A stretch of DNA of 55,608 bases from an uncultured Bacilli bacterium (GCA_947522695.1 CANNTX010000001.1:1-55608), one strand, 5' to 3'; shown: positions 14,626 to 35,999, numbered from the stretch's first letter. Numbers and translations: made by a program. The notes: a model not told the origin generated them from the letters alone.

Positions 14626-15660
14626 ATGAATATATTAATTAATGGACATAATATTTATTTAATTTTATTAGTAACTTTTATATGTTGTGTTTTATTAGTG
14701 CCTCTTGCTAAAGTTGTAGCAAAACATATTGGAGCAATAGATATACCTAATGAGAGAAAGGTACATAAAAAACCGATGCCTAGATTGGGTGGATTAGCAA
14801 TATATTTAACATTTTTAATTGGTTATATGTTATTTGCACCTATTAACGAACAGATGATTTCAATTCTTATTGGAGGATTTATAATTATTATTCTTGGAAT
14901 ATGTGATGATATTAAACCAATTAGAGCAAGATATAAATTTTTAGTTCAGATAGTAGCTGCTTCTATTGTTGTATTTTATGGTAATATTTATTTACCTAAT
15001 ATAAGTGCTTTAGGATTATCTATTGAATTTGGTAAATTTGGTTATCCGTTAGCAATATTTTTTATTATTTCTATAATTAATGCGATAAATTTAATTGATG
15101 GTTTAGACGGACTTGCTAGTGGTACGAGTGCAATATTTTTTGCAACAATTACTATTATTGCTGTTTTACTTGATAGGTTATATGGGCTTGATGTAGTTTT
15201 ATGTGTTATTATGCTCGGCAGTACTTTAGGATTTTTAGTTTATAATAAACCGCCAGCTTCAATATTTTTAGGTGATACTGGAAGTACATTCTTAGGCTTT
15301 ATTATTGCGATTATAGCTTTGCTAGGATATAAAACTGCGACATTTACTAGTTTAATTATTCCAATATTTATTTTATTTTTACCGATACTTGACACTGTGT
15401 TTGCAATGATTAGACGCTATTTAAAGGGAGAAAATATAGGTGAGCCTGATAAGGAACATTTACATCATCAATTGCTTAAACTTAATAATAGTACTACTAA
15501 GACAGTATTAATTATGTATGGAATTGATATTCTATGTTCTGTAATAAGTGTATTATATGCTTTAGGGTATAATTTAATTGCAATTGTTTTATATTTAATT
15601 TTATTTGTATTTATATTATTTTTGATATATAAAACTGATATATTATTTAAACATAAATAG
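14626..15660 (+). CDS. tagO: glycosyltransferase family 4 polyprenyl-phosphate HexNAc-1-phosphate transferase (TagO/WecA type)
   Basis: PNERKVHKKPMPRLGGLAIY, DDIKPI, INAINLIDGLDGLA, FLGDTGS; ~10 TM segments. Confidence 0.9.
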   Translation: MNILINGHNIYLILLVTFICCVLLVPLAKVVAKHIGAIDIPNERKVHKKPMPRLGGLAIYLTFLIGYMLFAPINEQMISILIGGFIIIILGICDDIKPIRARYKFLVQIVAASIVVFYGNIYLPNISALGLSIEFGKFGYPLAIFFIISIINAINLIDGLDGLASGTSAIFFATITIIAVLLDRLYGLDVVLCVIMLGSTLGFLVYNKPPASIFLGDTGSTFLGFIIAIIALLGYKTATFTSLIIPIFILFLPILDTVFAMIRRYLKGENIGEPDKEHLHHQLLKLNNSTTKTVLIMYGIDILCSVISVLYALGYNLIAIVLYLILFVFILFLIYKTDILFKHK

Positions 15661-15718: not shown

Positions 15719-17818
15719 ATGAAGAAATTAATTAATAAAGAAAAATTAGGATATGTATTTTTAGTTTTTATGTGTTTGTCTTGTTTACTTGATTTACATA
15801 TTTTTTATAATAGATTTGCCACTTTAATAAGATTATTTTTTATTTTAATATTTTTTGGTATATCATTTATTAAATTTAGTAGTAAAAAAGATAGATTTAA
15901 ATTAATTGTTTATTTACTATTTGTACTTTTATATACTATTTTGCATTTGATATTTGTAGATAATTATTTAATGGAAGAATTATTATATATATTTAAAATG
16001 ACTTCTAATGTTTTACTTTTTTATAGTGTGTATTCGATGAATATAGATTATAAAAAATCTATTAAGTTTATTAAAATTATTCTTTGGTTTATATGTGGTT
16101 CAATAGTGTTATGTAACTTTTTAAAATTAGGTTATTCTTCTTATAATTTTAACTATTTAAAATATAATATATTTGATTGGTTTAAAAATATAAATGGATA
16201 TTTTGAAGATTTTTCTGGCAAAGGTTTCTTTCATTTAGCTAATCAAATAGTTGGAGTTGTTCTTTTATTCTATCCAATGCTTATTAATGAAGTTAAGGAA
16301 AATAAAAAAGTAATGGATATAGTTCTTCTTAATGTATGTAGTTTAAGTATGTTAATGATAGGAAATAGAACATCAAGTGCTGGTCCATTAATAATATTAA
16401 TATTTAGTTTTGTAATTTATTTGTTTCTTGTTACTATAAAAAGGGAGAAATTATCTATTAAGTATATTTTAATTTTGGTATTTAGTATGATTTTTATAAA
16501 TGTATTTTTATATAATGCGCCTATTGTTAAAAGAGATAAATATTATAACGATTTAGATAATAGTGTTGCTGATGTTAATAAAGAAGATTATATTATAACA
16601 ACTAGAGATATCCTTTTAGATAAAAATTTAAATATAAATTTTATTGATAATTATTATCCTTATGATCAAGATCAAGAATTTTGGGATAATTTAGTTAATT
16701 CAAATATTGATTTTAAAGATTCAAGATTAATTGAATTAAAGATTGCTCAAAGATTAGTTGAGTTAAGTGATAACAAATTATATAAATTTGTTGGTATAGG
16801 TTACTATAAAATTATTAGTGTTTGTAATATTGAAAGAGATTATGTAATGCAGTATTATAGTGTTGGTATTTTGGGATTAGTAATCTTTATTGGATTTTAT
16901 TTTATTATCTATATTAAAATGTTATTTAAAGTATTTATTAATTTAGATAAGAAATTTAATTATTTAAATATTATGCTTTTAAGTGGCATAGGTATTAATT
17001 TAATTGTTGCTTATTTAAGTGGGAATATTCTTAATGCTTTAAGTTCGACTATACCATTAACGATTTGTTTAGGTATTGCTTATAATGAAATTAGAGTTGA
17101 AAGATCATGTAAAGTACTTAATTATAACATCTGTAAATTAAATAGAGATGAAATTATTAATGAATTAAATAATAGTGACAATAGAAATATTTTATTTAAT
17201 ATGAATCCGATAATTATGGTAAATTTTAATGATAATAAAGAATATAAAAAATTTATTAATAAGGAAAGGTATAATATTCCTGATGGTTTTGGTACTATCG
17301 TTGGATTAAAATTTAAAGATAATAAGGGGTATAGTCAAATAACTGGTGTTGATATGTTTAATTCTTTGGTAGATAATGCATTTAAATATGGTAAGAAAAT
17401 TTATTTATATGGTGCTAAAAAAGAAGTTATTGAAAAGACTGTTAAAGTATTAAAAGAAAAGTATATTAATTTAAATATATGTGGGTATATGAGTGGATAT
17501 AGTAAAGAAAAAGATTTATTAAATGATATTAAAAAATGTAAACCAGATTATTTATTTGTTGGTATAGGATCACCTAAACAAGAAGAATTTATTATTAGAA
17601 ATGAAAAGTTGTTTAGAAATATAAGTGTTATTATGCCTGTTGGTGGTACATTTGATGTTGTATCTGGATTAAAGAAAAGAGCACCGATTATTTATCAAAA
17701 ACTACATTTAGAATGGTTATATAGAATGATTAAAGAACCTAAAAGAATTAAAGATAATGTTAAGATATTAAAATATTTATATTTGGTAATATTTAAAAAT
17801 CGAGGTAAAGATGATTAA
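15719..17818 (+). CDS. fusion protein: N-terminal polytopic O-antigen-ligase/Wzy-like membrane domain plus C-terminal WecB/TagA/CpsF (GT26) glycosyltransferase
   Basis: About 460 aa of multi-TM sequence, followed by the GT26 motifs IPDGFGTIVG, IYLYGAKKEV, FVGIGSPKQEEFI, MPVGGTFDVVSG, LEWLYRMIKEPKR. Confidence 0.8.
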   Translation: MKKLINKEKLGYVFLVFMCLSCLLDLHIFYNRFATLIRLFFILIFFGISFIKFSSKKDRFKLIVYLLFVLLYTILHLIFVDNYLMEELLYIFKMTSNVLLFYSVYSMNIDYKKSIKFIKIILWFICGSIVLCNFLKLGYSSYNFNYLKYNIFDWFKNINGYFEDFSGKGFFHLANQIVGVVLLFYPMLINEVKENKKVMDIVLLNVCSLSMLMIGNRTSSAGPLIILIFSFVIYLFLVTIKREKLSIKYILILVFSMIFINVFLYNAPIVKRDKYYNDLDNSVADVNKEDYIITTRDILLDKNLNINFIDNYYPYDQDQEFWDNLVNSNIDFKDSRLIELKIAQRLVELSDNKLYKFVGIGYYKIISVCNIERDYVMQYYSVGILGLVIFIGFYFIIYIKMLFKVFINLDKKFNYLNIMLLSGIGINLIVAYLSGNILNALSSTIPLTICLGIAYNEIRVERSCKVLNYNICKLNRDEIINELNNSDNRNILFNMNPIIMVNFNDNKEYKKFINKERYNIPDGFGTIVGLKFKDNKGYSQITGVDMFNSLVDNAFKYGKKIYLYGAKKEVIEKTVKVLKEKYINLNICGYMSGYSKEKDLLNDIKKCKPDYLFVGIGSPKQEEFIIRNEKLFRNISVIMPVGGTFDVVSGLKKRAPIIYQKLHLEWLYRMIKEPKRIKDNVKILKYLYLVIFKNRGKDD

Positions 17819-18327
17819 ATGTTAAGTTAAACGAATTAATTAAGGATAAAACTATTTCTAAAGATAGTAAAGTATTATTTGTTAATGATGGTTCTAAAGA
17901 TAAAACTTGGGATATTATATGTGAATTAAATAAAAAAATAAATTATTTAGTGGAATTAATTTATCAAGAAATGGAGGACACCAAAATGCGTTGGTAGCAG
18001 GGCTTATGACTGCTAAAGAAAATGTTTAATTTTGCATGGGATGTGATAATATCTTTTAGTGTTAAACAAATAAGAATGATTCTTGATTTAGGTATATTTA
18101 TTTGTATGATAAGTTTTGTAGTACTTATTTATTGTTTAATTAGAAAGATTAGCGGTGCTACTGTGGAAGGATGGACATTTATTGCTTGTTCATTATGGCT
18201 TTTAGGTGGTATTTAAATGTTTTCACTTGGTATAATTGGAGAATATGTTGGTAATGTTTATAGTGAAGCTAAAGCAATACCTAGATATATTATTCAAGAT
18301 AATTTATTAGAAAAGAGGGGAAAATAA
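17815..18327 (+). pseudogene. decayed GtrB/CsbB-like family 2 glycosyltransferase (bactoprenol glycosyltransferase type)
   Basis: Fragments lie in different frames: KVLFVNDGSKDKTWDII (frame 1), INLSRNGGHQNALVAGL (frame 0), FNFAWDVIISFS...GWTFIACSLWLLGGI*, then MFSLGIIGEYVGNVYSEAKAIPRYIIQD. The 5' end is missing, ~130 central codons are missing, and an in-frame TAA at 18214-18216 sits where the family has Gln. Confidence 0.8.
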
Positions 18328-18771
18328 TTGAGAAAAGAAATATTGGTTTTTTCGATAATTTTAATAATTTGTCTTATTGTTTCTAAGTTTGTTTTTTCTT
18401 TTGCATTTGTTCATGGGGATTCAATGAGTCCTACATTTAGTGATAAACAGTTAATTTTTATAAATAAAACTGATAGGAATTATAATGATAATGATATTAT
18501 TATTTTTAAAAAGAAGGATCGAAAATTAATAAAAAGAGTTGTTGCAGTTCCTGGTGATAAAATTGTTATTAAAGATAGTTGTCTTTATGTTAATGATAAA
18601 TATTACGAAAATATTAATATAGAATGGTTTCATTTTAATCAAAAAGATTATCAATTAAAGGATGATGAATACTTTGTTTTAGGTGATAATTTATTAAATA
18701 GTATTGATAGTAGGTATAGTGAGATTGGTTTGGTTTATATGAATGAAATAATTGGTAAAGTAATTTGTTGA
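18328..18771 (+). CDS. lepB: signal peptidase I (S26)
   Basis: GDSMSPTF (catalytic Ser box), LIKRVVAVPGD, GDNLLNSIDSR; TTG start directly after the pseudogene stop. Confidence 0.9.
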   Translation: MRKEILVFSIILIICLIVSKFVFSFAFVHGDSMSPTFSDKQLIFINKTDRNYNDNDIIIFKKKDRKLIKRVVAVPGDKIVIKDSCLYVNDKYYENINIEWFHFNQKDYQLKDDEYFVLGDNLLNSIDSRYSEIGLVYMNEIIGKVIC

Positions 18772-18818
18772 TTATTTAAATATATGTGTTAAAATTATAT
18801 TTAGTTAGAGGGTATATT

Positions 18819-20882
18819 ATGTTGTTTAAAATTTTAGGTACGTTAATGTACTGGTGTTATGGTTTATCAGAAAATTATGGAATTGCAATTATATTTTTTA
18901 CTTTTTTAAGTAAAATAATTTTGCTTCCTATAAGTATATGGGTTCAAAAAAACTCTATTAAAATGGTTAAGATGCAGCCTGATATTTATAAAATCAAAAT
19001 TAATTATTTTGGGGATAAGGATAAGATAGCTGATGAAACATCAAAATTATATAAAAAAGAAAAATATAATGCTTTTGTTTCTTTAGTTCCATTACTTATT
19101 CAAATTGTTTTACTATTAGGAGTCGTTGAAGTAATTAATAAACCACTTACGTATATCTTAAATGTTGATAATAATGAAATTGTTTCATTAAAGGATGATA
19201 TTGTTAATAAATATGATAATTTGTCAATTGATTCTTCTTCTTTGGAACTTAACATTATTAATGAAATTAAAAATAATGATATTCATACTTTTAAAAACAT
19301 TTCTGTTTCTACTGTAAATAAAGTTCAAGATTTTAGTTTTAGTTTTTTAGGTTTTGATTTAAGCTGGATTGCTGATGTTAAAGGTGGATTATCAATTTTA
19401 ATTCCTATTATTGCAGGAATTAGTGCATTTATTATGTGTTTTGCTCAAAATTTAATGAATGTTCTACAACAAGAACAATCAAAATTTAATAAATGGTTTA
19501 TGGTAATATTTTCAGTTGCATTATCTTTATATTTAGGATATTTTGTTCCAGCTGGTGTTGCTTTATATTGGACTTCAAGTAATTTACTTGCAATTTTAAT
19601 ACAATGGTTTTTGAATATTATTATTAACCCTAAAAAATATGTTGATTATGAAAATTTAGAAAAATTACAAAAGGAATATAATGAAATTGCTTCTTTAGAT
19701 AAAAAAGTTAAGAGAAGTAAGGAACAAAAGAAAAAAGAAAAAGAAGATTATAAAAAATTCTTTAAAATTGCTAATAAACATTTAGTTTTTTATTCAGAAA
19801 GTAATGGTTTTTACAAATATTATAAAGGTATTATAGAATATTTATTAAAACATACAAATATAGTTATTCACTATATTACTAGTGATTATAATGATAATAT
19901 TTTTAATATGGAAAAAGAATATTCAAATCTTAAGGCATATTATATTGAAGAAAAAAAATTAATCACCTTAATGATGAAAATGGATGCTGATGTGGTTGTT
20001 ATGACTATGCCAGATTTAGAAAATTATCATATTAAAAAAAGTTATATTAGAAAAGATATTGTTTATGTTTATATTCCTCATGGAATTGATAGTATTAATT
20101 TAACTCAAAGATATAAATCAATAAATGCTTATGATATTTTCTTTGCTGCTGGAAAATATCAAAGAGAAGAGGCCGAAGCAACAAACAAATTATTTAATTT
20201 AAATAATAAAATCTATGATTGGGGATATACATTACTTGATGATATGGCTGACAATTATAAAGAAAAGAAATCAACTGATAAAAAATCTATTTTAATTGCT
20301 CCATCTTGGCAAAAGGACAATATTTGTGATTTATGTTTAGATCAGCTACTAAATGAAATGATGGTTAATGAAAACTATAATATAATAGTTAGACCACATC
20401 CTCAAGAAGTGAGACATAAAGCAGAAAAATTTGAAGCATTAAAAGAAAAGTATAAAAATAATAAAAATGTATATATTCAAACTGATTTTTCAAATAATTC
20501 ATCTATATTGGATGCTGATTTATTGATTACTGATTGGTCTGGAATTTGTTATGAATATGCATTTACTACTAAAAAACCGGTTGTATTTATAAATACACCA
20601 ATGAAAATTATGAATCCAAACTATAAGGATATAAACATAGAACCTTATTCTATTTGGTCTAGAGATGTGATTGGAAAAAGTATTGAGGTAGATAATATAA
20701 GTAAAGAATTAAATAATGATATAGATTATTTATTAAAAAACAAAGATAAATATACTAAAAAAATAGATGATTTGTATCATGATTCAATATATAATATTGG
20801 AAATTCTGGAGAAGTTGGTGCTAAATACTTAGTTGAAATAATAAAAAGTAAAATTGACGAAAGGAGAAAAAATGAAAAATAA
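18819..20882 (+). CDS. fusion protein: N-terminal YidC/Oxa1-type membrane insertase domain plus C-terminal CDP-glycerol glycerophosphotransferase (TagB/TagF-like) domain
   Basis: YidC-like region: GIAIIFFTFLSKIILLPISIWVQKNSIKMVKMQPD...LYKKEKYNAF...GVALYWTSSNLLAILIQ. TagF-like region: ILIAPSWQKDN, IIVRPHPQ, LITDWSGICYEYAFTTKKPVVF. The ATG at 18819 follows an AGAGGG RBS (track start 18786). Confidence 0.8.
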   Translation: MLFKILGTLMYWCYGLSENYGIAIIFFTFLSKIILLPISIWVQKNSIKMVKMQPDIYKIKINYFGDKDKIADETSKLYKKEKYNAFVSLVPLLIQIVLLLGVVEVINKPLTYILNVDNNEIVSLKDDIVNKYDNLSIDSSSLELNIINEIKNNDIHTFKNISVSTVNKVQDFSFSFLGFDLSWIADVKGGLSILIPIIAGISAFIMCFAQNLMNVLQQEQSKFNKWFMVIFSVALSLYLGYFVPAGVALYWTSSNLLAILIQWFLNIIINPKKYVDYENLEKLQKEYNEIASLDKKVKRSKEQKKKEKEDYKKFFKIANKHLVFYSESNGFYKYYKGIIEYLLKHTNIVIHYITSDYNDNIFNMEKEYSNLKAYYIEEKKLITLMMKMDADVVVMTMPDLENYHIKKSYIRKDIVYVYIPHGIDSINLTQRYKSINAYDIFFAAGKYQREEAEATNKLFNLNNKIYDWGYTLLDDMADNYKEKKSTDKKSILIAPSWQKDNICDLCLDQLLNEMMVNENYNIIVRPHPQEVRHKAEKFEALKEKYKNNKNVYIQTDFSNNSSILDADLLITDWSGICYEYAFTTKKPVVFINTPMKIMNPNYKDINIEPYSIWSRDVIGKSIEVDNISKELNNDIDYLLKNKDKYTKKIDDLYHDSIYNIGNSGEVGAKYLVEIIKSKIDERRKNEK

Positions 20883-21135
20883 AATTTGTAAATTTGGTAT
20901 GATTATTTTCTTTTCATTTTCATTTATGATTTTATTTAGTGATAATGTACTTGCTTATATTGATCCGTCTGTTATGACTTACGCCATACAGGCAATAGCA
21001 GGAATTGTTATTGCAATAGGTGCTTTTGTTGGTATATATTTTAGAAAAATTAAAAAGAATGTTACTAATAAATTAGGCATTGATGAAAATAAAAATAAAG
21101 AAATTGAATCAGACGAGATTAAAATTGAAAAATAA
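20872..21135 (+). CDS. small hypothetical membrane protein (2 TM segments)
   Basis: AGGAG RBS before the ATG at 20872; overlaps the upstream stop by 11 nt; hydrophobic segments FGMIIFFSFSFMILF and AIAGIVIAIGAFVGIYF. Confidence 0.55.
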   Translation: MKNKICKFGMIIFFSFSFMILFSDNVLAYIDPSVMTYAIQAIAGIVIAIGAFVGIYFRKIKKNVTNKLGIDENKNKEIESDEIKIEK

Positions 21136-21144
21136 TTATATATT

Positions 21145-21170
21145 AACACTCTATTTTGAGTGTTTTTTAT
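21145..21170 (+). terminator. rho-independent terminator closing the tagO-to-YidC/TagF gene string
   Basis: AACACTC-TATTTT-GAGTGTT followed by T5. Confidence 0.65.
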
Positions 21171-21235
21171 TGAAGTGTTCAAAAAAAGATGTTATTATTT
21201 AATTATGAACAAAATATAGTATAGGAGTTGATTGT

Positions 21236-22213
21236 ATGAAAAAATACATATGTTTAATATTTTTGTTTATTTTATTAATTACAACTGGTTGTTCAAAAAA
21301 AGCTGGTCAAGTTGTAATTTATACATCTATGGAGGAAAATCGTAATAAGGCTTTAAAAGAGCAATTAGCTGAAAAGTTTCCTGATAAAGATATAGTTGTT
21401 CAATATTTATCAACTGGAAATAGTGCTGCAAAGATAAAAAATGAAGGCACAAATGTAGAAGCCGATATTATACTTGATTTGGAAACTGCTCATATGGTTG
21501 AACTAGAAGAAAATTTTGCTGATTTATCATCTTTTGATACAAGTATTTATCTTGATGGAGTTAATAAATCAAATAGATATTTAACTTGGACTAAATATAC
21601 TATGGCATTAATTATTGATAAAAACTATTTTGATAAGCATAATTTATCAGTACCAAAAACTTATGATGATTTGTTAAAATCTGAATATAGGAATTTAATT
21701 GCTATTCCTGATCCTAAAACATCAGGAACTGGTTATGCATTTTATTTAAATGCTGTTAATATAATGGGTGAAGATAACGCTATTGAGTATTTTAAGAAAT
21801 TAAAAAACAATTTAAGAGAATTTACAACATCTGGTTCTGGGCCTACAAACTTATTAAAACAAGGTGAAATAGCTATTGCAATGGGAATGACAAGTCAAGG
21901 GGTAGAAGCTATAAATGAAGGTTATAATTTTAAAATTGTTTCTTTAAAAACTGGTGCACCATATAATACTACTAGTTTTGGTATTATTAAGGGAAGAGAA
22001 AACAAAGAAAATGTACGTGAAGTTTTTGAGTGGTTAATGAATGATTTTGGAAAATATGATAAAGAGTATTATCTTCCTGATAAGATTCTTAAAAATCAAG
22101 AAGTTAAAGTTAAAAATTATCCTACAAATTTAAAAGATGCAAAAATGGATGGTATAGATAGTGTTAGCGTCAAACAAGATTTAATTAGCAAGTGGGAAAA
22201 AGTTAATGGCTAG
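21236..22213 (+). CDS. ABC importer substrate-binding lipoprotein (Fe3+/thiamine/2-aminoethylphosphonate-type SBP family)
   Basis: Lipobox LLITTGCS; VVIYTSMEENRNKAL and DPKTSGTGYAFYL motifs typical of this SBP class. Confidence 0.75.
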   Translation: MKKYICLIFLFILLITTGCSKKAGQVVIYTSMEENRNKALKEQLAEKFPDKDIVVQYLSTGNSAAKIKNEGTNVEADIILDLETAHMVELEENFADLSSFDTSIYLDGVNKSNRYLTWTKYTMALIIDKNYFDKHNLSVPKTYDDLLKSEYRNLIAIPDPKTSGTGYAFYLNAVNIMGEDNAIEYFKKLKNNLREFTTSGSGPTNLLKQGEIAIAMGMTSQGVEAINEGYNFKIVSLKTGAPYNTTSFGIIKGRENKENVREVFEWLMNDFGKYDKEYYLPDKILKNQEVKVKNYPTNLKDAKMDGIDSVSVKQDLISKWEKVNG

Positions 22214-22967
22214 TATTGAGGTTAAAAATATTTCAAAAATTTTTGATAATAAATTAGTATTAAATAATTTGAATTTTAATGTTAGTGATGGAGAATTATT
22301 ATCTATACTGGGTAAATCAGGTTGTGGTAAAACAACTTTGTTAAAAATATTAATTGGAATTGAAAAACCTTCTAGTGGAATTATTTTAAAAAATAATAAA
22401 AATATTACAAAATATGATATTTCTAAAAGAGGAATGGGAATCGTTTTTCAAAATTATGCATTATTTCCAAATATGACTGTTCTTGAAAATGTTTCTTATG
22501 CTCTAAATAATAAATTGAAAGATAAGAAGAAGGCCAATGAACAAGCAATGGATATTATTTCGATGGTTAATTTAGATGATCATATTAATAAATATCCAAA
22601 TGAGTTATCTGGTGGTCAGATGCAAAGAGTTGCAATTGCTAGAACGTTAGCTCTTAAACCTGATGTTATTTTGTTTGATGAAGCATTAAGCGCATTGGAT
22701 GCGGAAAATAAAATAATTCTTAGAAATAAAATAAGAGAACTTAATAAAAAATTTAATATTACAATGATTTTTATTACTCATGATCAAGAAGAAGCATTTT
22801 CGATATCCGATCGTGTGATGATAATGAATGATGGTTGTATTGAACAAATTGATAAACCAAGTGAAATTTTTAAACATCCTGCATCAAAGTATGTAGAAGA
22901 TTTTGTAGTCAAACACTTAAAAGAAAAAGTAACATCAATTCAAAAATGTGTTAAGGTTGATATGTGA
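22206..22967 (+). CDS. ABC transporter ATP-binding protein
   Basis: GKSGCGKTT, LSGGQMQRVAIAR, ILFDEALSALD, ITHDQEEA; overlaps the SBP gene by 8 nt. Confidence 0.9.
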   Translation: MASIEVKNISKIFDNKLVLNNLNFNVSDGELLSILGKSGCGKTTLLKILIGIEKPSSGIILKNNKNITKYDISKRGMGIVFQNYALFPNMTVLENVSYALNNKLKDKKKANEQAMDIISMVNLDDHINKYPNELSGGQMQRVAIARTLALKPDVILFDEALSALDAENKIILRNKIRELNKKFNITMIFITHDQEEAFSISDRVMIMNDGCIEQIDKPSEIFKHPASKYVEDFVVKHLKEKVTSIQKCVKVDM

Positions 22968-24547
22968 TGAAAAAAATTAAAATAAGTAAAACAGGAGGAT
23001 TAGTGTTATTATTTTTAATCTTTTCTGTTTTATTTCCAATTTCAAAATTGTTTATTTACGTTAAGTGGGATACTTTTGGCAAGTTAGTTACTTCTGAAGC
23101 TTTTATAACTGCATCTAAAAATTCACTTTTAGTAGCATCTATCTCAACAGTTCTATCTGTTTTAATTGCATATATTCTTGCTTATACTTTGAATAGAGTT
23201 AATATTAAATTTAAAAAGTTTTTTAAGATTGTATTTGTACTTCCAATGCTTATTCCATCTGTATCACATGGTCTAGGTTTAATTAATCTGTTTGGTAATA
23301 ATGGAATTATATCAAGATATTTTGATTTTAACATTATCGGACCTATTGGTATTATAATTGGATCAATAATGTATTCTTTTCCAGTTGCATTTTTAATGTT
23401 GGCTGATGGATTTAAATATATTGATAATAATATGTATTATGTTTCAAAATCGCTTAATTTAAATAATTTTCAAATATTTAAAAATGTTACTTTGGTTTAT
23501 TTGAAAAAATCTATTCTATCATCTATATTTGCTGTGTTTACTATGATTTTTACTGATTATGGTGTTCCAATAGCGGTAGGTGGAAAATTTAATACTTTAC
23601 CTGTATTTTTATATAAAGAAGTTATTGGTTTACTAGATTTTTCAAAAGGAACTATGATTGCTATGTTTTTACTTATTCCTGCAATAATTTCTTTTTTAGT
23701 TGATACTTTTGTTAAGGATTATAATAATGAAAATACTGGTAATAAAGATTATTATAGTTCTAATAAAGTTTTATCTATATTTTTAAAGTCATTTGTTGTT
23801 TTGATTATGATTTTAATTTTTGTTGTACTTGGATCATTTGTTTATTATGCATTTGTTGATAATGTTGTACTAAATAATTCGTTTTCTTTAAAGCACTTTG
23901 AATATGTATCTGAAAATGGTATATTTGATTATTTATTAAATTCATTAGTTATTTCTTTGTTTGTGGCAATAATCGGAACATTTATTTCTTATTTTGCTGC
24001 TTATAATACGGCTAGAATTAAAGGAAAAATGTCTAAAGTAATTCATTTATTTACAATAATTACTTTAGCTATACCTGGTATCGTATTGGGGCTTGCTTAT
24101 ACGATTTGTTTTAGAGGAACTTTTATTGCTAATACTTTTACTATAATTATAATTTGTAACATTGTACACTTTATAGCATCACCTTATTTAATGGCTTATA
24201 ATGCACTTTTAAAAGTTAATAATAATTATGAAGTTGTTGCTTCAACATTAAATATAAGTAAATTTAAAATTATTATGGATGTTATTATTCCTTGTACTAA
24301 GAGTACTATTATAGAAATGTTTTCTTATTTTTTTGTTAATAGTATGATTACAATTTCAGCTGTTACATTCTTATATACAGCTTCAACAATGCCTATTTCA
24401 TTATTAATAAATAATTATGAAGGAAACATGATGTTAGGAGAAGCTGCAATTGTTTCTATTATAATTTTATTTATTAATTTATTGATTAAATTTATTGGTA
24501 ATATTATTATTTCAAAAGATAGAAAGAAGGTTTATGTTAATGATTAA
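22964..24547 (+). CDS. ABC transporter permease, fused double-domain (about 12 TM) type
   Basis: 527 aa, highly hydrophobic, with two repeated permease halves; the start overlaps the ATPase stop (GTGATGA). Confidence 0.85.
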   Translation: MMKKIKISKTGGLVLLFLIFSVLFPISKLFIYVKWDTFGKLVTSEAFITASKNSLLVASISTVLSVLIAYILAYTLNRVNIKFKKFFKIVFVLPMLIPSVSHGLGLINLFGNNGIISRYFDFNIIGPIGIIIGSIMYSFPVAFLMLADGFKYIDNNMYYVSKSLNLNNFQIFKNVTLVYLKKSILSSIFAVFTMIFTDYGVPIAVGGKFNTLPVFLYKEVIGLLDFSKGTMIAMFLLIPAIISFLVDTFVKDYNNENTGNKDYYSSNKVLSIFLKSFVVLIMILIFVVLGSFVYYAFVDNVVLNNSFSLKHFEYVSENGIFDYLLNSLVISLFVAIIGTFISYFAAYNTARIKGKMSKVIHLFTIITLAIPGIVLGLAYTICFRGTFIANTFTIIIICNIVHFIASPYLMAYNALLKVNNNYEVVASTLNISKFKIIMDVIIPCTKSTIIEMFSYFFVNSMITISAVTFLYTASTMPISLLINNYEGNMMLGEAAIVSIIILFINLLIKFIGNIIISKDRKKVYVND

Positions 24548-25430
24548 TGAAAATGAATTTGAGGTATTGGTTTGCTTAGAAAAGGAAAAAAGAAATATTT
24601 CTCAACGTGAAATATCTAAAATTACAGGATTGTCATTAGGCACTGTTAACAAAAGTTATTCTAATTTAATAAATAATGGTTTTATTGGTAGTAATGGATT
24701 AATTACTGATAGTGGTATTAATACTTTGGAACCATATAGAGTTAAAAGAGCAATATTTTTAGCAGCTGGTTTCGGTTCGCGAATGGTTCCAATTACATTA
24801 AATACTCCTAAACCTTTAGTTAGAGTAAATGGTAAAAGAATTATTGAAACTCTATTAGATGCTGTTAGTGTTGCTGAAATTCCTGAAATTGTTATTGTTA
24901 CTGGATATTTAAGTGAACAATTTGATATTTTATGCAATAAATATCCTAATATAAAAATTGTTTATAATAAACATTATAATGAAATGAATAATATATCATC
25001 TGCCTATGCTGTTAAAGATTTATTTCAAAATGCATATGTTATGGAGTCTGATCTTGTATTATATAATCCAAATATTATTAGAAAGTATGAATATCATTCT
25101 AACTTTTTAGGAAAAAAAGTTGATGTTACAGATGATTGGTGTTTTGATGCTAAAAATGGGATTATAGTAAGAGAAAAACAGGGTGGTTATAATTGTTATC
25201 AAATGTATGGCATATCATATTATGATGAAGATGATGGCAAGAAAATAGCTAATGATTTAGAAAAAGTTATTAATATGCCTGGCGGCAAAGAAAAGTATTG
25301 GGAACAAGTTGTATTAGATGTTTGTAAAAATAATTATAAAATCTATGTTAAAGAATGTCATGATGGTGATATAATAGAAATAGATTCATTTAATGAATTA
25401 AAAAAGATTGACAAATCTTATGATGTGTAA
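24534..25430 (+). CDS. winged-HTH plus LicC-like nucleotidyl (cytidylyl) transferase
   Basis: N-terminal wHTH ISQREISKITGLSLGTVNKSYSNLINNGFI, then the NTP-transferase motif AIFLAAGFGSRMVPITLNTPKPLVRVNGKRIIE. The start overlaps the permease 3' end. Confidence 0.8.
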   Translation: MLMINENEFEVLVCLEKEKRNISQREISKITGLSLGTVNKSYSNLINNGFIGSNGLITDSGINTLEPYRVKRAIFLAAGFGSRMVPITLNTPKPLVRVNGKRIIETLLDAVSVAEIPEIVIVTGYLSEQFDILCNKYPNIKIVYNKHYNEMNNISSAYAVKDLFQNAYVMESDLVLYNPNIIRKYEYHSNFLGKKVDVTDDWCFDAKNGIIVREKQGGYNCYQMYGISYYDEDDGKKIANDLEKVINMPGGKEKYWEQVVLDVCKNNYKIYVKECHDGDIIEIDSFNELKKIDKSYDV

Positions 25431-25448: not shown

Positions 25449-27080
25449 ATGAAAAAATTTAAATTTAAGGATTTAATATTTCCTTCAATTGTTTCTTTTG
25501 TATTGTCATTTATGTTGGTTATTTATGAACCAATTATTACATATGCTGCAAATACGGATGATTATTGGTTTAGTTTTAAAACATTAATTTTAAACAATTT
25601 ATTGTTATTTTTGATATTATTTTTTGTAGGTGTTATTTTTAGTGTTATAGTGTACTTTTTAACATTATTACTTAATAAAAGAAGTTTATATAATTTATAT
25701 TTAATTTTATTATTTGTTACATTTATTACTACATATATTCAAGGTAATTTTTTGGCTGGTTCTTTACCAACCCTAGATGGTTCTCCTATTATTTGGAATG
25801 ATTATACTAAACAAGGTGCTTTATCCGTTGCTTTATTGTGTATACTACTTGGTTTAAGTACATTCTTATTTGTTAAATATAAAGAAAAAGTTTTTACTTA
25901 TATGAAATATATATCATTTGCTGTTTTTGCGATGTTATTTGTTAGTTTAAGTACCACTTTATTAACAAGTAAAGATATATATGCAAATAAGGGAACAATT
26001 ACTGCTACTAATGATAATATAACTAATTTATCAGAAAATAAAAATTTTTTAATTTTACTTGTTGATATGGCTGATTCTAAAACATTTGATAAAGTTTTAA
26101 AACAAGTGAATAAGGAAGATATTTTTAAAGATTTTACATATTTTCCTGATACATTGGCGGCATATCCATTTACTCGTGAATCTATCCCATTTATTCTATC
26201 TGGTGAATGGTTTGAGGAACAAAAATCTTTTACAGATTACTATAATGATGCATTAAATAATTCGAAATTTTTAGAAGAACTAAAAAAGCAAAATTATGAT
26301 ATAAATATTTATGAAAGTGATTTAAATTGGACTGATAATAAAGCACTAGATGTTAATAATATTAAGGATATTAATTTTGCCATTGATAAAATTTCTTTAT
26401 ATAAGCAAGAGTTTAAATATATTTTATTTAAATATTTGCCTTTTCCTTTAAAGAAATATTCTAAAGTTGAATGGATTGATTATAAGTTATGTAGAAAAGA
26501 AAATCTCGATTCTGATAATCTATTTAATATGGATAATAAAGTAAATTATGATTTGTTGGATGAAGTTAATATTCAAAAAAGTAATTATTTTCAATTTTTA
26601 CATATAGACGGAGGTCATTATCCATGGGATTCTGATTCCAATTTTAATAAGGTAGAAAATGGTACTTATGAGCAAAAAATCGAGGCTTCAATTAAGGTTA
26701 TTGATAAGTATATTAAAAGAATAAAAGATGCTAAATTATATGATAATTCAGTAATAATGGTTCTTGCAGATCACGGAAATAATGGTTATGATCCTGTTGG
26801 AAGACAAAATCCAATTCTATATATTAAAGGTGTAAATGAAAAACATAATAAATTATTTGTGTCTAACAAAAAAGTTTCTTATACTGATTTAAATGATTCT
26901 ATTTATTATGATTTATTAAATGGCAAAAATAGTTCCGAATTATTACCGGAAGTTCAAAAAAATAGAATTAGAAGATTTATTTGGTATAAAGATTATGATG
27001 AATTATACGAACAATTTTTAGATGGTCATGCTTGGGAAACGAATAAATTAAAAAATTCTGGCAAAAAATATGGTAAATAA
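25449..27080 (+). CDS. polytopic membrane protein with an extracytoplasmic sulfatase/alkaline-phosphatase-superfamily domain (LtaS/EptA-like transferase)
   Basis: About 6 N-terminal TM segments, then FLILLVDMADS, LHIDGGHYPWD and MVLADHGNN, which resemble the metal/nucleophile and HxxGxHxP / DHG motifs of phospho-headgroup transferases. Confidence 0.7.
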   Translation: MKKFKFKDLIFPSIVSFVLSFMLVIYEPIITYAANTDDYWFSFKTLILNNLLLFLILFFVGVIFSVIVYFLTLLLNKRSLYNLYLILLFVTFITTYIQGNFLAGSLPTLDGSPIIWNDYTKQGALSVALLCILLGLSTFLFVKYKEKVFTYMKYISFAVFAMLFVSLSTTLLTSKDIYANKGTITATNDNITNLSENKNFLILLVDMADSKTFDKVLKQVNKEDIFKDFTYFPDTLAAYPFTRESIPFILSGEWFEEQKSFTDYYNDALNNSKFLEELKKQNYDINIYESDLNWTDNKALDVNNIKDINFAIDKISLYKQEFKYILFKYLPFPLKKYSKVEWIDYKLCRKENLDSDNLFNMDNKVNYDLLDEVNIQKSNYFQFLHIDGGHYPWDSDSNFNKVENGTYEQKIEASIKVIDKYIKRIKDAKLYDNSVIMVLADHGNNGYDPVGRQNPILYIKGVNEKHNKLFVSNKKVSYTDLNDSIYYDLLNGKNSSELLPEVQKNRIRRFIWYKDYDELYEQFLDGHAWETNKLKNSGKKYGK

Positions 27081-27158: not shown

Positions 27159-27956
27159 ATGAAAAGAATAATAAATAATTTAAAATATGTATATAAGAAA
27201 TATTCTTTTTTACTTGAACAATTGGTTTCAAGAGATTTTAAAGTAAAGTATAAAAGAAGTATTTTAGGTGTTCTTTGGAGTTTGTTATATCCTGTTTTAA
27301 TGATGTCTGTTATGGCAGTTGTATTTTCAAATGTTTTTAAATTTTCTACACCTGGTGTTAGTTATTTAGCATATTTACTTATAGGACTAACATATTTTAA
27401 CTATTTTACTGAGGCAAGTAATTTGGCTATGAGTAGTGTTGTTGCTAATTTTAGTTTAATTAATAAAGTATATATTCCAAAATATATATTTCCACTTTCA
27501 AAATGTATTTTTGTTGGAATTAATTTTCTTCTTACATTAATTCCATTATACATAGTAATTATTGCGACTGGTACTGGACTTAATTGGTATCATTTGTTAT
27601 TACCTTTTTCTTTTATTTGTTTATTTTTATTTACGATAGGAATGGGTTTTATACTTGCAACTATTTCTGTATTTTTAAGAGATATGTTTTATATTTACGG
27701 AATCGTAACAACAATTTGGAATTATTTAACCCCTATTATGTATGATATAAATATTATATCGAATCCTACATTACAATTATTAATGAAATTTAATCCAATG
27801 TATCAATTTATTAATTTTGCAAGAACTATTATTCTATATCATAATTGTCCGACATTAGGTCAATTTTTAGGATGCTCTATATCTTCAATTGTTGTATTTA
27901 TAATTGGATGTATTTTATTTAAAAAGAAACAAGATAAATTTATTTATTATGTATAA
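27159..27956 (+). CDS. tagG: ABC-2 type polysaccharide/teichoic acid export permease
   Basis: 265 aa, 6 TM segments, N-terminal LVSRDFKVKYKRSILGVLWSLL motif characteristic of TagG/Wzm. Confidence 0.85.
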   Translation: MKRIINNLKYVYKKYSFLLEQLVSRDFKVKYKRSILGVLWSLLYPVLMMSVMAVVFSNVFKFSTPGVSYLAYLLIGLTYFNYFTEASNLAMSSVVANFSLINKVYIPKYIFPLSKCIFVGINFLLTLIPLYIVIIATGTGLNWYHLLLPFSFICLFLFTIGMGFILATISVFLRDMFYIYGIVTTIWNYLTPIMYDINIISNPTLQLLMKFNPMYQFINFARTIILYHNCPTLGQFLGCSISSIVVFIIGCILFKKKQDKFIYYV

Positions 27957-27970
27957 GAGGTGAATGTTAA

Positions 27971-28753
27971 ATGGTAAATTCTAAAAACGAATTAACTAAC
28001 ATTGATAATAATTTTAATCCAATGATTGAGGTTAAAGATGTTTCTATGAAATTTAATTTAGGAATTGAAAAAGGTTTTTCTATTAAACAATGGTTTGTAG
28101 ATATAGGAAAACATAAGAATAAAGTCAATAATGATTTTTGGGCTTTAAAAAACATTAATTTTAATATTAATAAAGGAGAAGTTATTGGTTTTATTGGATC
28201 TAATGGGGCTGGCAAATCTACATTATTAAAGGTTGTAGCTGGTGTAATGAAGCCAACAATTGGAAAGGTAAATGTTTATGGAAATATTTGTCCCATGATT
28301 GAGTTGGGTGCTGGGTTTGATTATCAACTAACTGCCAAAGAAAATATTTATTTGAATGGTGCTGTATTAGGATATTCTAAGGAATTAATTGATAAAAAGT
28401 TTGATGAAATTGTTGAATTTTCTGAACTTAAAGATTTCTTAGATGTTCCTGTTCAAAATTTTTCTTCCGGTATGGTTGCAAGACTTGCTTTTAGTATCGC
28501 TACAATTGTTAATCCAGAAATTCTTATTGTTGATGAGATTTTATCAGTTGGTGATATCGCTTTTCAAGCTAAAAGTGAAGCTAAGATGTTGGAAATGATT
28601 GGTGGAGGAACAACTGTATTGTTTGTTTCACATTCAGTTGAGCAAATTAAGAAAATGTGTGATAGAGTAATATGGTTAGATCATGGCAAAATGATAAAAA
28701 TGGGTGGAAAAGAAATTTGTGATGAATATATTGAATTTATGAAGGGAAAATAA
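27971..28753 (+). CDS. tagH: teichoic acid/polysaccharide export ABC ATP-binding protein
   Basis: GSNGAGKST, FSSGMVARLAFSIA, ILIVDEILSVGD, VSHSVEQI (TagH/Wzt-type motif variants). Confidence 0.9.
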   Translation: MVNSKNELTNIDNNFNPMIEVKDVSMKFNLGIEKGFSIKQWFVDIGKHKNKVNNDFWALKNINFNINKGEVIGFIGSNGAGKSTLLKVVAGVMKPTIGKVNVYGNICPMIELGAGFDYQLTAKENIYLNGAVLGYSKELIDKKFDEIVEFSELKDFLDVPVQNFSSGMVARLAFSIATIVNPEILIVDEILSVGDIAFQAKSEAKMLEMIGGGTTVLFVSHSVEQIKKMCDRVIWLDHGKMIKMGGKEICDEYIEFMKGK

Positions 28754-29783: not shown

Positions 29784-31058
29784 GTGAAAAAGATATTAGT
29801 AATAAGTTGGTTTTTTCCTCCTGTTAATTCATCTGAGGGAATCGTAACATATAAACTTTTAAATAATTCTAAATATAATTATGATGTATTTACTCAAAAA
29901 GGTAATGCAAGTTGGTCCTACGGGAATAAAGATGATTTACCATTAAATAATAATATTAATTGTGTGTTTTCAGATGCTACGAATTTAGATGATTTTATAA
30001 ATTCAGCATATGAATTTTTTGTAAATAATTCTAATAAATATGACATTGTTATGACAAGGTCTATGCCTGAAGAATCACATATAATTGGAATGAAAATAAA
30101 AAAATTTAAACCTGATATTAAATGGATAGCTTCTTTTGGTGATCCAATCGGGAATAATCCTTTTACTTTATTAGCTTTAAAAAATGTTAATCCATATTCT
30201 TTAAAGAAAAGATATGAAGTTAAAATGTCATTAAAGTCAGTATTATCTCCATTTAGAATGTATCGTTCAATTAGATACAATATTAGAAATAAAAAACAAT
30301 ATAATATGTATATTAAGTCAAAAAATTATTTAGAAAAGAAAATTGTTAATACTTGTGATTATATAATTTGTAATAATAGTTATCAAGTTGATTATATTTC
30401 TAAAAATAATAATATAGATAAATCTAAATTTATAATACTTCCCCATTCTTATGATAAAAAATTATATCCAAATGTTAAGAAAAATAATGATAAAATAATT
30501 TTTAGATATATTGGTCATTTAGATGATATAAGAACACCAAAATTATTTTTAGAAGCCATAAATCTATTAAACACAAAATATGATGACTTTAAAGATAAAG
30601 TTCAATTTGAATTTTATGGTAATATGTCTATAAATGATAAAGTATATATTTTGGATAATGAATTAACCGACGTTGTTAAAATACGTAAACCTATAAATTA
30701 TTTGAAAAGTTTAGAAGTTATGAAATCTAGTGATTGGCTGATTCATATAGATGCAAATTTATTTAATATTATGGATAAAAATGTATTTTTTGCGGCTAAG
30801 CTTGCTGATTATATTGGAAGTGGCTCAAATATATTTAGTATAACAATGCTTGATGGTGCTAGCGCAGATATTTTAAGAGGAATGAACGCTGTGGTAACAA
30901 CTTATTCTTTAAATGATATTGCCAATTATTTATATCTAATTGTTTATAATAATTATAATGTTAAATTAAATACTGATTATTCAAAAAATTTTGATGCGAA
31001 AAATGTTGCTAATGATTTTGATAATTTTGTAAAAAATGAGGTGTTAAATGAAAACTAA
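29784..31058 (+). CDS. putative GT-B fold glycosyltransferase (family not recognised)
   Basis: AGGAGG RBS plus GTG start. N-terminal KILVISWFFPPVNSSEG; C-terminal FFAAKLADYIGSGSNIF resembles a GT-B nucleotide-sugar binding half. Confidence 0.5.
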   Translation: MKKILVISWFFPPVNSSEGIVTYKLLNNSKYNYDVFTQKGNASWSYGNKDDLPLNNNINCVFSDATNLDDFINSAYEFFVNNSNKYDIVMTRSMPEESHIIGMKIKKFKPDIKWIASFGDPIGNNPFTLLALKNVNPYSLKKRYEVKMSLKSVLSPFRMYRSIRYNIRNKKQYNMYIKSKNYLEKKIVNTCDYIICNNSYQVDYISKNNNIDKSKFIILPHSYDKKLYPNVKKNNDKIIFRYIGHLDDIRTPKLFLEAINLLNTKYDDFKDKVQFEFYGNMSINDKVYILDNELTDVVKIRKPINYLKSLEVMKSSDWLIHIDANLFNIMDKNVFFAAKLADYIGSGSNIFSITMLDGASADILRGMNAVVTTYSLNDIANYLYLIVYNNYNVKLNTDYSKNFDAKNVANDFDNFVKNEVLNEN

Positions 31059-32325
31059 ATATTTAATAGTTGGTGCAGGTATTTCTGGCTTAACATTTGC
31101 AAGTTATTGTAAAGATGATTATATAATTATTGAAAAAGAAAATGAAGTTGGTGGTTATTGTAAAACTCATTATAAAGATGATTATGTATGGGATTATGCT
31201 GGTCATTTCTTTCATTTTAAAACTGATGAATTTAAGAAAAAGTTTATTGATAGTTTGGATAAAAATGATTTTGTTACGCAAGATAAAAAAACATTTATTT
31301 ATTTTGATGATAAGTTAATTGATTTCCCTTTTCAAACACATATTCATGAACTTTCTAAAGATAAATTTATAGATTGCTTATATGATTTATTTAACAAGGA
31401 AGAAAAAGAAAATTATGATAATTTTTTAGATATGCTTTACGGAAAATTTGGTAAATCAATTACAGAAATGTTTTTAAAACCTTATAATGAAAAATTATAT
31501 GCTGTTGATTTAACAAAACTCGATAAGGATGCAATGGGAAGATTTTTTCCATATGCTGATATAAAAGCAATAATTAATAATATGAAACAAAATAAAGTTA
31601 ACTCATATAATAATACATTTATGTATCCAAAAAAGGGTGCTCAAGTTATTATTGATGTTTTGATGAAGGATATTGATAAAAATAAAATTTTATTAAATTC
31701 AATGATAGAAAGTATTGATTTAAATAATAAAATAGCTAAACTTAATAATGGAAAAGAAATACAATATGAATATTTGATAAATTCTATTCCTTTTGATAAA
31801 TTTTTAAAACTTACTAATAACAAAGAATATATTAATTTCAGTGATAAATTAACATATAATAAGGTTTTGGTTTTTAATTTAGGATTTAATAAAAAATCAA
31901 GTTATAATAATCATCATTGGTTATATTTTCCGGATAAAGATATAAATTTTTATAGAGTTGGGTTTTATGATAACATATTAAATTCTAATAAATTAAGTAT
32001 GTATATAGAGATTGGATATCCAAAAGATAATGTTATAACTTCAGATGAAATAGATAGACAACTTAAATTGACGTTAGATAATTTAAAAAAATGTAATATT
32101 ATAGATGATTCATTTGTTTTAAATGCATATGAAAGTATTGTAATGGATCCTGCTTATGTTCATATTGATGCTAAAAATGATTTAAGGGTTAGAGAAATTA
32201 TGAAGGAATTATCTAATAAAAATGTTTATAGCATTGGTAGATATGGTGGCTGGACATATTGCTCTATGGAGGACTGTATGGTTGAAGCAAAGGATTTGTA
32301 TGAGAAAATAAGAGGTAATTTATGA
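31048..32325 (+). CDS. FAD-dependent enzyme, UDP-galactopyranose-mutase-like / amine-oxidase-fold
   Basis: Rossmann motif YLIVGAGISGL, IIEKENEVGG, AGHFFHF, and C-terminal SIGRYGGWTYCSMED, which parallels the UGM GRLAEYKYYDM segment. Confidence 0.65.
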   Translation: MKTKYLIVGAGISGLTFASYCKDDYIIIEKENEVGGYCKTHYKDDYVWDYAGHFFHFKTDEFKKKFIDSLDKNDFVTQDKKTFIYFDDKLIDFPFQTHIHELSKDKFIDCLYDLFNKEEKENYDNFLDMLYGKFGKSITEMFLKPYNEKLYAVDLTKLDKDAMGRFFPYADIKAIINNMKQNKVNSYNNTFMYPKKGAQVIIDVLMKDIDKNKILLNSMIESIDLNNKIAKLNNGKEIQYEYLINSIPFDKFLKLTNNKEYINFSDKLTYNKVLVFNLGFNKKSSYNNHHWLYFPDKDINFYRVGFYDNILNSNKLSMYIEIGYPKDNVITSDEIDRQLKLTLDNLKKCNIIDDSFVLNAYESIVMDPAYVHIDAKNDLRVREIMKELSNKNVYSIGRYGGWTYCSMEDCMVEAKDLYEKIRGNL

Positions 32326-35989: not shown

Positions 35990-35999
35990 GTGTGAGTTT

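Follow-up and report, generated by a model that had tools for sequence, protein, structure and literature searches.

In the 55,608-nt stretch analyzed here (GCA_947522695.1, CANNTX010000001.1:1-55608; hereafter the window), which comes from an uncultured Bacilli bacterium, one open reading frame (ORF) at 18819-20882 on the plus strand joins a YidC/Oxa1 insertase domain to a TagF-like phosphotransferase. We suggest that the protein unites a specialized, non-housekeeping YidC paralogue with a TagF-like enzyme, and that it is the cytoplasm-facing hub of an accessory module that adds a small phospho- or phosphono-head group to an exported wall polymer. We give this reading a probability of roughly 0.5. 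Besides the fusion, the module would comprise a paralogue of signal peptidase I (LepB), a 'YIDPS' microprotein, an LtaS-like ectoenzyme, and a LicC-type cytidylyltransferase with further supply genes. In the window, the polymer is probably the product of TagO, TagA and TagGH, and the head group is probably imported 2-aminoethylphosphonate (AEP) or a similar amino-phosph(on)ate. The architecture, its conservation, the co-occurrence of the parts, the Rosetta-stone fusions and the coherent topology are shown by the data, whereas the chemistry is a proposal.

The fused protein and its two halves

The frame is uninterrupted and encodes 687 amino acids (aa), with a GAGGG ribosome-binding site 7 nt 5' of the ATG at 18819. 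An alternative GTG at 18786, giving a 698-aa product, is a less likely start. A first-pass annotation of this DNA had described a single in-frame YidC::TagF-like ORF next to lepB, within a tagO-containing gene string. All the motifs it quoted are found in the translation, lepB lies directly upstream, and tagO, tagA and tagGH are in the same locus; the fusion is confirmed as a genuine in-frame protein. The AlphaFold2 (AF2) model, computed with 28 homologues as input, is confident throughout, with a mean predicted local distance difference test (pLDDT) of 87.8 and a predicted template modeling score (pTM) of 0.66.

The YidC/Oxa1 domain (aa 1-270; 18819..19628, plus strand) scores above the curated cut-offs of both databases, with 119.9 bits (1.4e-34) for the Pfam family 60KD_IMP on aa 20-266, where the cut-off is 35, and 107.7 bits against a cut-off of 84.3 for the NCBIfam model yidC_oxa1_cterm (TIGR03592). 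In the AF2 model this half has helices at 20-62, 67-80, 85-107, 190-213, 222-242 and 245-268 (pLDDT about 77-94), which give the five-helix transmembrane (TM) core and the cytoplasmic coiled-coil hairpin (C1) between TM1 and TM2. No YidC chain is found among the Foldseek top 50 for the whole-fusion model, because the domain with the glycosyltransferase B fold (GT-B) dominated the ranking. The groove residue R366 of E. coli YidC aligns with Lys32 of the fusion (codon 18912-18914), a position occupied by K in 77 family members out of 81 and by R in another 2. As for the retention of the conserved groove Arg, about which the first-pass annotation had asked, the positive charge is kept and the Arg itself is not. 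Lys can stand in for Arg, since E. coli YidC R366K/Y517A is functional (PMC8920935). The aromatic pair at the groove's top, Y250/W251 (E. coli Y516/Y517), is invariant.

Column identities from an alignment of 81 family sequences average 0.76 in the YidC core and 0.70 in the transferase domain. The best-conserved parts of the YidC half are TM1 (0.84), the C1 hairpin (0.82) and TM5 (0.82), and the extracellular insert at aa 105-185 (about 80 aa) is variable (0.35). The two domains are separated by a Lys/Glu-rich, helical cytoplasmic linker (aa 271-315; 19629..19763, plus strand; AF2 helices 277-291 and 301-316, pLDDT 69-92; column identity 0.65). Since the YidC core is better conserved than the enzyme domain, with TM1 and the hairpin most conserved, it is unlikely to be a mere membrane anchor, one of the interpretations offered before. 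Retention of the groove Lys, the aromatic pair and the conserved TM1, C1 and TM5 is more than one would expect of a passive anchor. Insertase activity of this half on small membrane proteins is suggested only circumstantially, by the adjacent procoat-like microprotein and lepB.

The C-terminal part (aa 316-687; 19764..20882, plus strand) is a TagF/TagB-like GT-B phosphotransferase domain. Pfam Glyphos_transf gives 41.7 bits when aa 272-687 are scanned alone (cut-off 22.1), and a six-frame genome search gives 41.9 bits; it is not listed in the whole-protein Pfam scan at E<=0.01, and the NCBIfam scan of the fusion gives no match for this domain. Foldseek against the PDB places TagF-like capsule polymerases at ranks 1-3 (8qoy, Cps3D; 8a0m and 8a0c, Bcs3; E about 1e-7), followed by generic GT-B enzymes, and searches of PDB chains by sequence or family profile found no TagF chain for the domain, the profile matching no PDB chain at all. 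We consider it a very divergent TagF-like GT-B. It looks catalytically competent, because the motifs PHG (with His421), APSW (494-497), RPHPQ (525-529) and DWS (572-574) are invariant. His421 and His527 of RPHPQ are present in all 28 sequences; judging from motif resemblance only, they may correspond to the two catalytic histidines of TagF (H444 and H584 in S. epidermidis). The YidC C-terminus ends in the cytoplasm, so the transferase domain is cytoplasmic, as a nucleotide-activated donor requires.

The same architecture was found well beyond the window. The best 120 database relatives are all 643-698 aa long, most with both Pfam domains, and a full-length relative is present in at least 239 species-representative genomes, from small-genome Bacilli, Lachnospiraceae, Oscillospiraceae, Erysipelotrichaceae and Saccharibacteria among others. 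That two genes were merged by a sequencing error could be suspected from the source genome, which is fragmented (89 contigs totalling 1.12 Mb, with a G+C content of about 23%) and about 70% complete. The recurrence of the uninterrupted architecture in those genomes and in hundreds of protein clusters from independent assemblies argues that the fusion is not an assembly or annotation artefact, the probability of which we consider negligible. In a relative of the same family (G103:C18:60276-62339), the orthologous fusion contains one in-frame TAA, which may reflect a pseudogene or a sequencing error.

Within the taxonomic order of the window, the fusion was found in 3 of 151 sampled genomes, and due to this patchiness we regard it as accessory and not as an essential insertase. 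A stand-alone yidC, whose presence had been left to be checked, does exist elsewhere in the genome. It encodes a 310-aa lipoprotein with the canonical groove Arg, in an rpmH-rnpA-yidC-jag operon adjoining dnaA, and is 29% identical to the fused YidC domain. One metagenome-assembled genome (MAG; CAMJWT01) has two sets of fusion, microprotein and LtaS-like genes on different contigs with different neighbors (L013 and L028), one of them accompanied by an importer and a LicC-like gene as in the window. In several Saccharibacteria loci (L031, L034, L036, L039, L047 and others) the module adjoins tagGH. This arrangement and the 55-58% identity of the module between the tiny-genome Saccharibacteria and Firmicutes point to horizontal spread of the whole module between phyla.

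The microprotein, the signal peptidase and the LtaS-like ectoenzyme

We compared 80 species loci, 44 of them with full flanks. In the window, the ATG of a gene for an 87-aa microprotein (20872..21135, plus strand; ribosome-binding site AAGGAG at 20861-20866) overlaps the 3' end of the fusion gene. A homologue adjoins the fusion in 78 of the 80 loci and in all 44 with full flanks, and is coupled to it in translation in 78 of 80. Pfam and NCBIfam scans returned no family for the microprotein. It consists of a 28-aa signal peptide (..NVLA|) and a mature part YIDPSVMTYAIQAIAGIVIAIGAFVGIYFRKIKK..LGIDENKNKEIESDEI, with the conserved core YIDPSVMTYAIQAxAGxxIAxGAxxGIYFRKAKKK...LGIDENxNKEVESDxI. With a median identity to the window of 70%, the smallest component exceeds both the fusion (57%) and the LtaS-like protein (36%) in conservation. 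Of 150 diverse representatives, 139 bear the YxDPS motif, and all but one of these (138) have its Tyr; the Ser is sometimes replaced by Thr or Ala. Two forms exist, one with a signal peptide ending in AxA|Y (NVLA|YIDPS in the window) and one with a short leader of 3-16 residues; the first has the layout of M13 procoat and the second that of Pf3 coat. A search of 1.84e9 representative proteins recovered 603 relatives of the microprotein, many of them fused to LtaS-like proteins.

The signal peptidase I paralogue directly upstream of the fusion (147 aa; 18328..18771, plus strand) matches Pfam Peptidase_S26 with 111 bits, has the Ser/Lys dyad motifs SMSPT and KRV, and counts among the genome's three full-length S26 paralogues. 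A lepB gene lies within 8 kb in 18 of 36 loci with the signal-peptide form of the microprotein, against none of 40 with the short-leader form (Fisher 7e-8, uncorrected for phylogeny), which ties the lepB of the window, as a dedicated paralogue, to the signal-peptide form. Directly 3' of the microprotein gene, a terminator-like hairpin with a T-run (21145..21172, plus strand; hairpin 21145-21164) closes the lepB-fusion-microprotein unit.

The ectoenzyme is an LtaS/EptA/PbgA-like membrane protein of 543 aa (25449..27080, plus strand), with an N-terminal TM bundle and an extracytoplasmic domain of the alkaline-phosphatase superfamily. Its Pfam Sulfatase score of 25.2 to 26.6 bits is barely above the cut-off of 25. 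The Asp, Thr, His and Asp-His residues are invariant in the family, and the fold matches 6xlp, 9nww, 5fgn and 4uor; the TM bundle is thus combined with an alkaline-phosphatase fold carrying the Thr nucleophile and metal ligands. Of the 44 full-flank loci, 35 encode the subfamily within 8 kb of the fusion, and for the other 9 it is found at another place in the genome (E 1e-99 to 1e-201). In the sample of 151 genomes of the order, the only three that have it are the three with the fusion. A gene of about 960 aa near the Saccharibacteria loci was considered as an alternative ectoenzyme and proved to be UvrA.

Natural fusions join these components in several orders, all of them topologically coherent. 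Many of the 603 microprotein relatives are fusions to LtaS-like proteins of 640-840 aa, and two others reach about 1330-1360 aa. Longer chains were found as YidC::TagF::signal-peptide-YIDPS-TM::LtaS-like (P0171, 1326 aa, and P0252), LtaS-like::YidC::TagF (P0286 and P0277), YidC::TagF::LtaS-like (P0336) and LepB::YidC::TagF (P0370). Dozens of clusters of 1190-1545 aa combine PF02096 with PF04464 and/or PF00884, most with all three; several are on long contigs and several come from NCBI MAGs where they are annotated just as "YidC". In the contigs of the three fused forms that we read (P0286, P0336 and P0370), a separate signal-peptide-type microprotein gene adjoins the fusion, and two of these microproteins have lost the cytoplasmic tail motif and kept A|Y[IV]DPS and the TM helix.

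These data can also be read in another way, in which the fused YidC serves the microprotein and the LtaS-like enzyme as a dedicated insertase or assembly chaperone, and the TagF-like domain separately decorates an undecaprenyl-linked polymer in the cytoplasm, as LicD would, before export by TagGH, with no small cargo passing through or along YidC. The microprotein does have the textbook layout of a YidC-only substrate (either an AxA|Y signal peptide followed by a short acidic segment that is translocated, a single TM helix and a basic tail, or a short Pf3-like N-tail), lepB is linked to the signal-peptide form only, the groove Lys, the C1 hairpin and Y250/W251 are conserved, and TagGH is encoded in the locus. 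However, the housekeeping YidC should manage so simple a substrate. This explanation gives no reason for the covalent joining of insertase and transferase in hundreds of species, leaves the strict co-occurrence of the LtaS-like enzyme unexplained and assigns it no task. We find it doubtful.

Head-group supply and the wall-polymer locus

Downstream of the terminator-like hairpin, an ABC importer (binding protein, ATPase and fused permease; 21236..24547, plus strand) has its best matches in PhnS2/PhnT2/PhnU2, a putative AEP system. It is followed by a winged helix-turn-helix plus LicC/PntC-type cytidylyltransferase (24495..25430, plus strand; Pfam NTP_transferase and HTH_24), whose best PDB match is LicC (1jyk, E 2.4e-32) and whose second is the PntC-aminotransferase 6pd1. 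By resemblance to these relatives, it would make a head group activated with cytidine mono- or diphosphate (CMP/CDP). A cytidylyltransferase is present in 31 of the 44 full-flank loci.

Supply genes differ among loci, and one locus may carry several types. We counted a LicC-like enzyme of about 300 aa in 22 loci, an NTP-transferase::aminotransferase of about 605 aa, like those of de novo AEP pathways, in 18, a TagD-like::oxidoreductase with an aminotransferase in 10, and a LicC::choline-kinase fusion in 9. A further locus (L095:794-6592, GCA_964540415.1) has, in this order, a thiamine pyrophosphate (TPP)-dependent decarboxylase gene of the phosphonopyruvate-decarboxylase type (Pfam TPP_enzyme_N/C, like those of phosphoenolpyruvate-mutase phosphonate pathways), an NTP-transferase::Fe-alcohol-dehydrogenase, the microprotein and a LepB::YidC::TagF fusion; this gene set suggests a head group of the hydroxyethylphosphonate type. 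In the closest relatives of the window's fusion (L004, L011 and relatives; 70% identity), a TagD-like cytidylyltransferase fused to a GFO/IDH/MocA oxidoreductase and a class-V aminotransferase replace the importer and the LicC-like gene, which hints at a CDP-linked amino-alditol, possibly serinol-like.

AEP and phosphocholine have no free hydroxyl and cannot be polymerized, which argues for the transfer of single phospho-head groups and not for polymer synthesis. The CDP-glycerol or polyol-phosphate polymerase that had been proposed for the C-terminal domain is therefore not supported: other loci supply AEP-, phosphocholine- or hydroxyethylphosphonate-type groups, the cytidylyltransferase of the window is LicC-like and stands beside a PhnS2/T2/U2-like importer, and the genome has no match to the glycerol-3-phosphate cytidylyltransferase TagD (TIGR01518), an absence that is weak evidence since the genome is only 70% complete. 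The idea of a polytopic YidC anchor for a TagB/TagF primase or polymerase of polyol-phosphate wall teichoic acid meets the same difficulties, and does not account for the obligatory microprotein, the LtaS-like partners and the Rosetta-stone fusions. In its favor, the putative catalytic His motifs are intact and the fusion is the sole Glyphos_transf gene that the six-frame scan found in the genome (about 70% complete), which also has tagO, tagA, mnaA and tagGH. Taken together with the higher conservation of the YidC core, these observations make a plain anchor very improbable.

The wall glycopolymer exported by TagGH is the probable final acceptor. Genes for such a polymer surround the fusion. 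tagO, of the glycosyltransferase family 4 (14626-15660, plus strand), and a TagA fusion are the linkage-unit genes of the same wall-polymer locus, and the TagG/TagH-type ABC-2 exporter is encoded at 27159..28753 (plus strand; Pfam ABC2_membrane and ABC_tran). Directly 3' of tagO, an O-antigen-ligase-like::TagA/WecG fusion of 699 aa (15719-17818, plus strand; ligase-like on aa 8-455, 87 bits; TagA on aa 518-678, 166 bits) is a second case in this locus of a peripheral-type wall-polymer enzyme joined to a polytopic domain. The gap of about 500 nt between this gene and lepB (17819-18327) holds only a 64-aa hydrophobic ORF (18022-18216). Within the tagGH-GT2-mnaA string, a 424-aa protein with no family match overlaps a 425-aa flavoenzyme similar to amine oxidases and UDP-galactopyranose mutase (29784-32325). 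Further on, 34994-36632 encodes a haloacid dehalogenase-type phosphatase::GtrA fusion (331 aa) and then a CDP-alcohol phosphatidyltransferase that best matches archaetidylserine or phosphatidylserine synthases. With these genes, the gene string may hold a second pathway for lipid head groups.

Proposed route of the head group and comparison with known systems

For the module we propose the following route. The importer and the LicC-like enzyme would produce the CMP/CDP-activated head group, as their family assignments suggest. The TagF-like domain, held at the membrane by YidC, would then move the phospho-head group onto a membrane acceptor in the inner leaflet, likely a lipid. The hydrophilic groove of YidC, together with the polar N-terminal half of the microprotein TM helix, could pass it outward, and the LtaS-like ectoenzyme would put it on the final acceptor, by analogy with LtaS, GacH and EptA. 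The YidC domain probably also inserts the microprotein, which the adjacent LepB would trim, exposing the invariant N-terminal Tyr. Enzymes such as LtaS, GacH and EptA take head groups from lipids. Insertases have been reported as lipid scramblases (Li et al. 2024; Bartos et al. 2024; both cited in PMC11997395), and a hypothetical lipid intermediate would fit both the habit of LtaS/EptA and the scramblase activity ascribed to insertases there.

More specifically, the YidC groove might combine with the outer, polar half of the microprotein TM helix (Y1, D3, S5, T8, Y9 and Q12) into a private conduit that takes the head group from the TagF-like side to the LtaS-like enzyme, with a dedicated lipid or the microprotein Tyr as carrier, the latter in a phospho version of the DltB-DltX-DltD shuttle. 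The Oxa1-family fold would then have been recruited to carry an enzyme relay across the membrane. We put this forward tentatively, as a possibility with less than even chances. If true, it would be the first YidC-family protein mainly moving small-molecule cargo for cell-wall decoration. The other interpretation in the first-pass annotation, that protein insertion and wall-polymer synthesis are physically coupled, comes closer to what we found; it did not include the decisive context, namely the obligatory procoat-like microprotein, the co-occurring LtaS-like ectoenzyme and the dedicated nature of lepB. An exporter role of the YidC domain in place of TagGH was ruled out because tagGH is present in the locus.

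A carrier role of the microprotein can be imagined in a stronger form, in which its N-terminal Tyr (or Ser5) ferries the phospho-head group covalently from the YidC::TagF side to the LtaS-like active site. Such a shuttle has a precedent in DltX, whose Tyr carries D-alanine between DltB and DltD (PMC12148441). The Tyr is the most invariant residue of the microprotein, at the extracytoplasmic end that LepB would expose, the N-terminal motif and TM helix are kept even where the cytoplasmic tail is not, and the microprotein occurs free or fused to the outer enzyme, as the DltX-type motif does (PMC12148441). On the other hand, the TagF-like active site is cytoplasmic and the Tyr is outside, and with the YidC groove closed outward no direct charging route is evident. 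Charging before insertion would allow one turnover only, which is implausible for a protein that is also found joined to an enzyme with many turnovers. The AF2 model, of low confidence in the microprotein part, does not place the N-tail in the ectodomain, and LtaS-type enzymes already own a Thr nucleophile. We therefore judge the covalent shuttle unlikely. The frequent fusion of the microprotein to the LtaS-like enzyme, which turns over many times, also led us to discard the idea of a consumable carrier, charged before insertion and used once.

Several observations weigh against the module as we propose it. The NCBIfam matches of the importer (TIGR03261, 156 bits; TIGR03265, 309 bits; TIGR03262, 369 bits) are all below the equivalog cut-offs, and the PDB relatives of its binding protein bind Fe3+, pyridoxal phosphate or AEP, which leaves its ligand ambiguous. 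The missing TagD match belongs here as well, with the weight given to it above. The co-occurrence counts ignore phylogeny, and the module may simply travel as one block. In the AF2 model of a natural microprotein::LtaS-like fusion, the microprotein part has a pLDDT of 40-73, with the YIDPS stretch below 50, so this model gives no structural support for docking of the microprotein. The known LtaS/EptA enzymes draw on bulk phospholipids and do without a dedicated supplier. With TagGH present, the polymer could be decorated in the cytoplasm in the LicD-like manner. Finally, full-text searches of the literature that paired YidC with glycerophosphotransferase, TagF, LtaS or phosphocholine found incidental co-mentions only, and no paper on the fusion or the module.

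The module is akin to known envelope-decoration systems and employs a YidC paralogue in a way for which the literature searched offers no precedent. Decades of work have treated YidC as a stand-alone insertase and TagF as a peripheral polymerase, and their conserved covalent union is unexpected for both fields. If the proposed relay is true, it would be a new route by which AEP, phosphocholine and related groups reach the surfaces of abundant gut and rumen Firmicutes and Saccharibacteria, where groups of this type shape host recognition and phage binding. It would also provide a naturally occurring system, open to genetics, in which the lipid-scramblase activity recently proposed for insertases could be put to the test. 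Because some carriers (Lachnospira eligens, Waltera species and Erysipelotrichaceae NK3D112) are in culture, the question is directly testable.

The fusion has the five-TM core and C1 hairpin of the Gram-positive YidC proteins (SpoIIIJ/YidC1, YqjG/YidC2; B. halodurans YidC2, 3wo6/3wo7) and of E. coli YidC (3wvf), with which it also shares a charged groove residue, the aromatic pair and hidden Markov model scores above the curated cut-offs. In contrast to the Gram-positive proteins, it lacks a lipoprotein signal, has Lys instead of Arg and carries the 80-aa variable extracellular insert, and its 370-aa enzyme replaces the C-terminal ribosome-binding tail. It is also accessory and patchy (3/151), and 29% identical to the housekeeping copy of its own genome. 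With TagF/TagB/TarL and the capsule polymerases Cps3D (8qoy) and Bcs3 (8a0c), the other half shares the GT-B fold, the Glyphos_transf family, the HG, APSW and RPHP motifs and the site at the cytoplasmic face of the membrane. It differs from TagF/TagB/TarL in being very divergent and joined to a polytopic insertase instead of peripheral, and its probable donors are of the CMP-AEP or CDP-choline type and not CDP-glycerol, because of which it probably makes a single transfer and not a polymer.

As a substrate-like component, the microprotein in its signal-peptide form shares with M13 procoat a cleavable signal peptide, a short acidic loop, a TM helix and a basic tail, and the short-leader form shares with Pf3 coat a short N-tail. 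M13 procoat and Pf3 coat are the model YidC-only substrates (PMC8920935). Unlike them, the microprotein is cellular, conserved across phyla, a stoichiometric partner of enzymes, and sometimes fused to them.

The Dlt machine (DltB, a membrane-bound O-acyltransferase, with DltX and DltD) likewise combines a cytoplasmic activated donor, a polytopic membrane protein, an obligatory microprotein and an outward-facing transferase. Both DltX and the microprotein of the module have an invariant Tyr at the extracytoplasmic end, and in both cases the motif is found free or fused (PMC12148441). However, all protein families of the module are unrelated to those of Dlt, and the microprotein has no sequence relationship to DltX. 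The chemistry of the module would be phosphodiester or phosphonate, whereas that of Dlt is ester, and a DltB-like tunnel is not a demonstrated feature of the module.

The module also resembles the Lic pathway (LicA/B/C/D) and PntC phosphonate tailoring in having a LicC/PntC-type cytidylyltransferase that would activate the head group (PMC6697681). In place of LicD, which was not found among the genes annotated in the window, it has the YidC::TagF-like fusion and the LtaS-like partner; the phosphonate-tailoring paper mentions LicD-like transferases only (PMC6697681). The outer enzyme has the same fold and catalytic residues as LtaS, EptA and PbgA.

There is a parallel in logic with the three-component systems of extracytoplasmic modification, in which a CsbB/GtrB synthase activates the group on a lipid inside, a GtcA/GtrA flippase flips it and a YfhO-type transferase of the GT-C fold transfers the group outside. 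The proposed module shares with the CsbB-GtcA-YfhO type this order of activation inside, flipping and transfer outside. It differs from them in that its synthase would be TagF-like and not GT2, the lipid intermediate is hypothetical, the cargo would be a phospho-head group and not a sugar, and a YidC fold joined to that synthase is the candidate for the flippase role.

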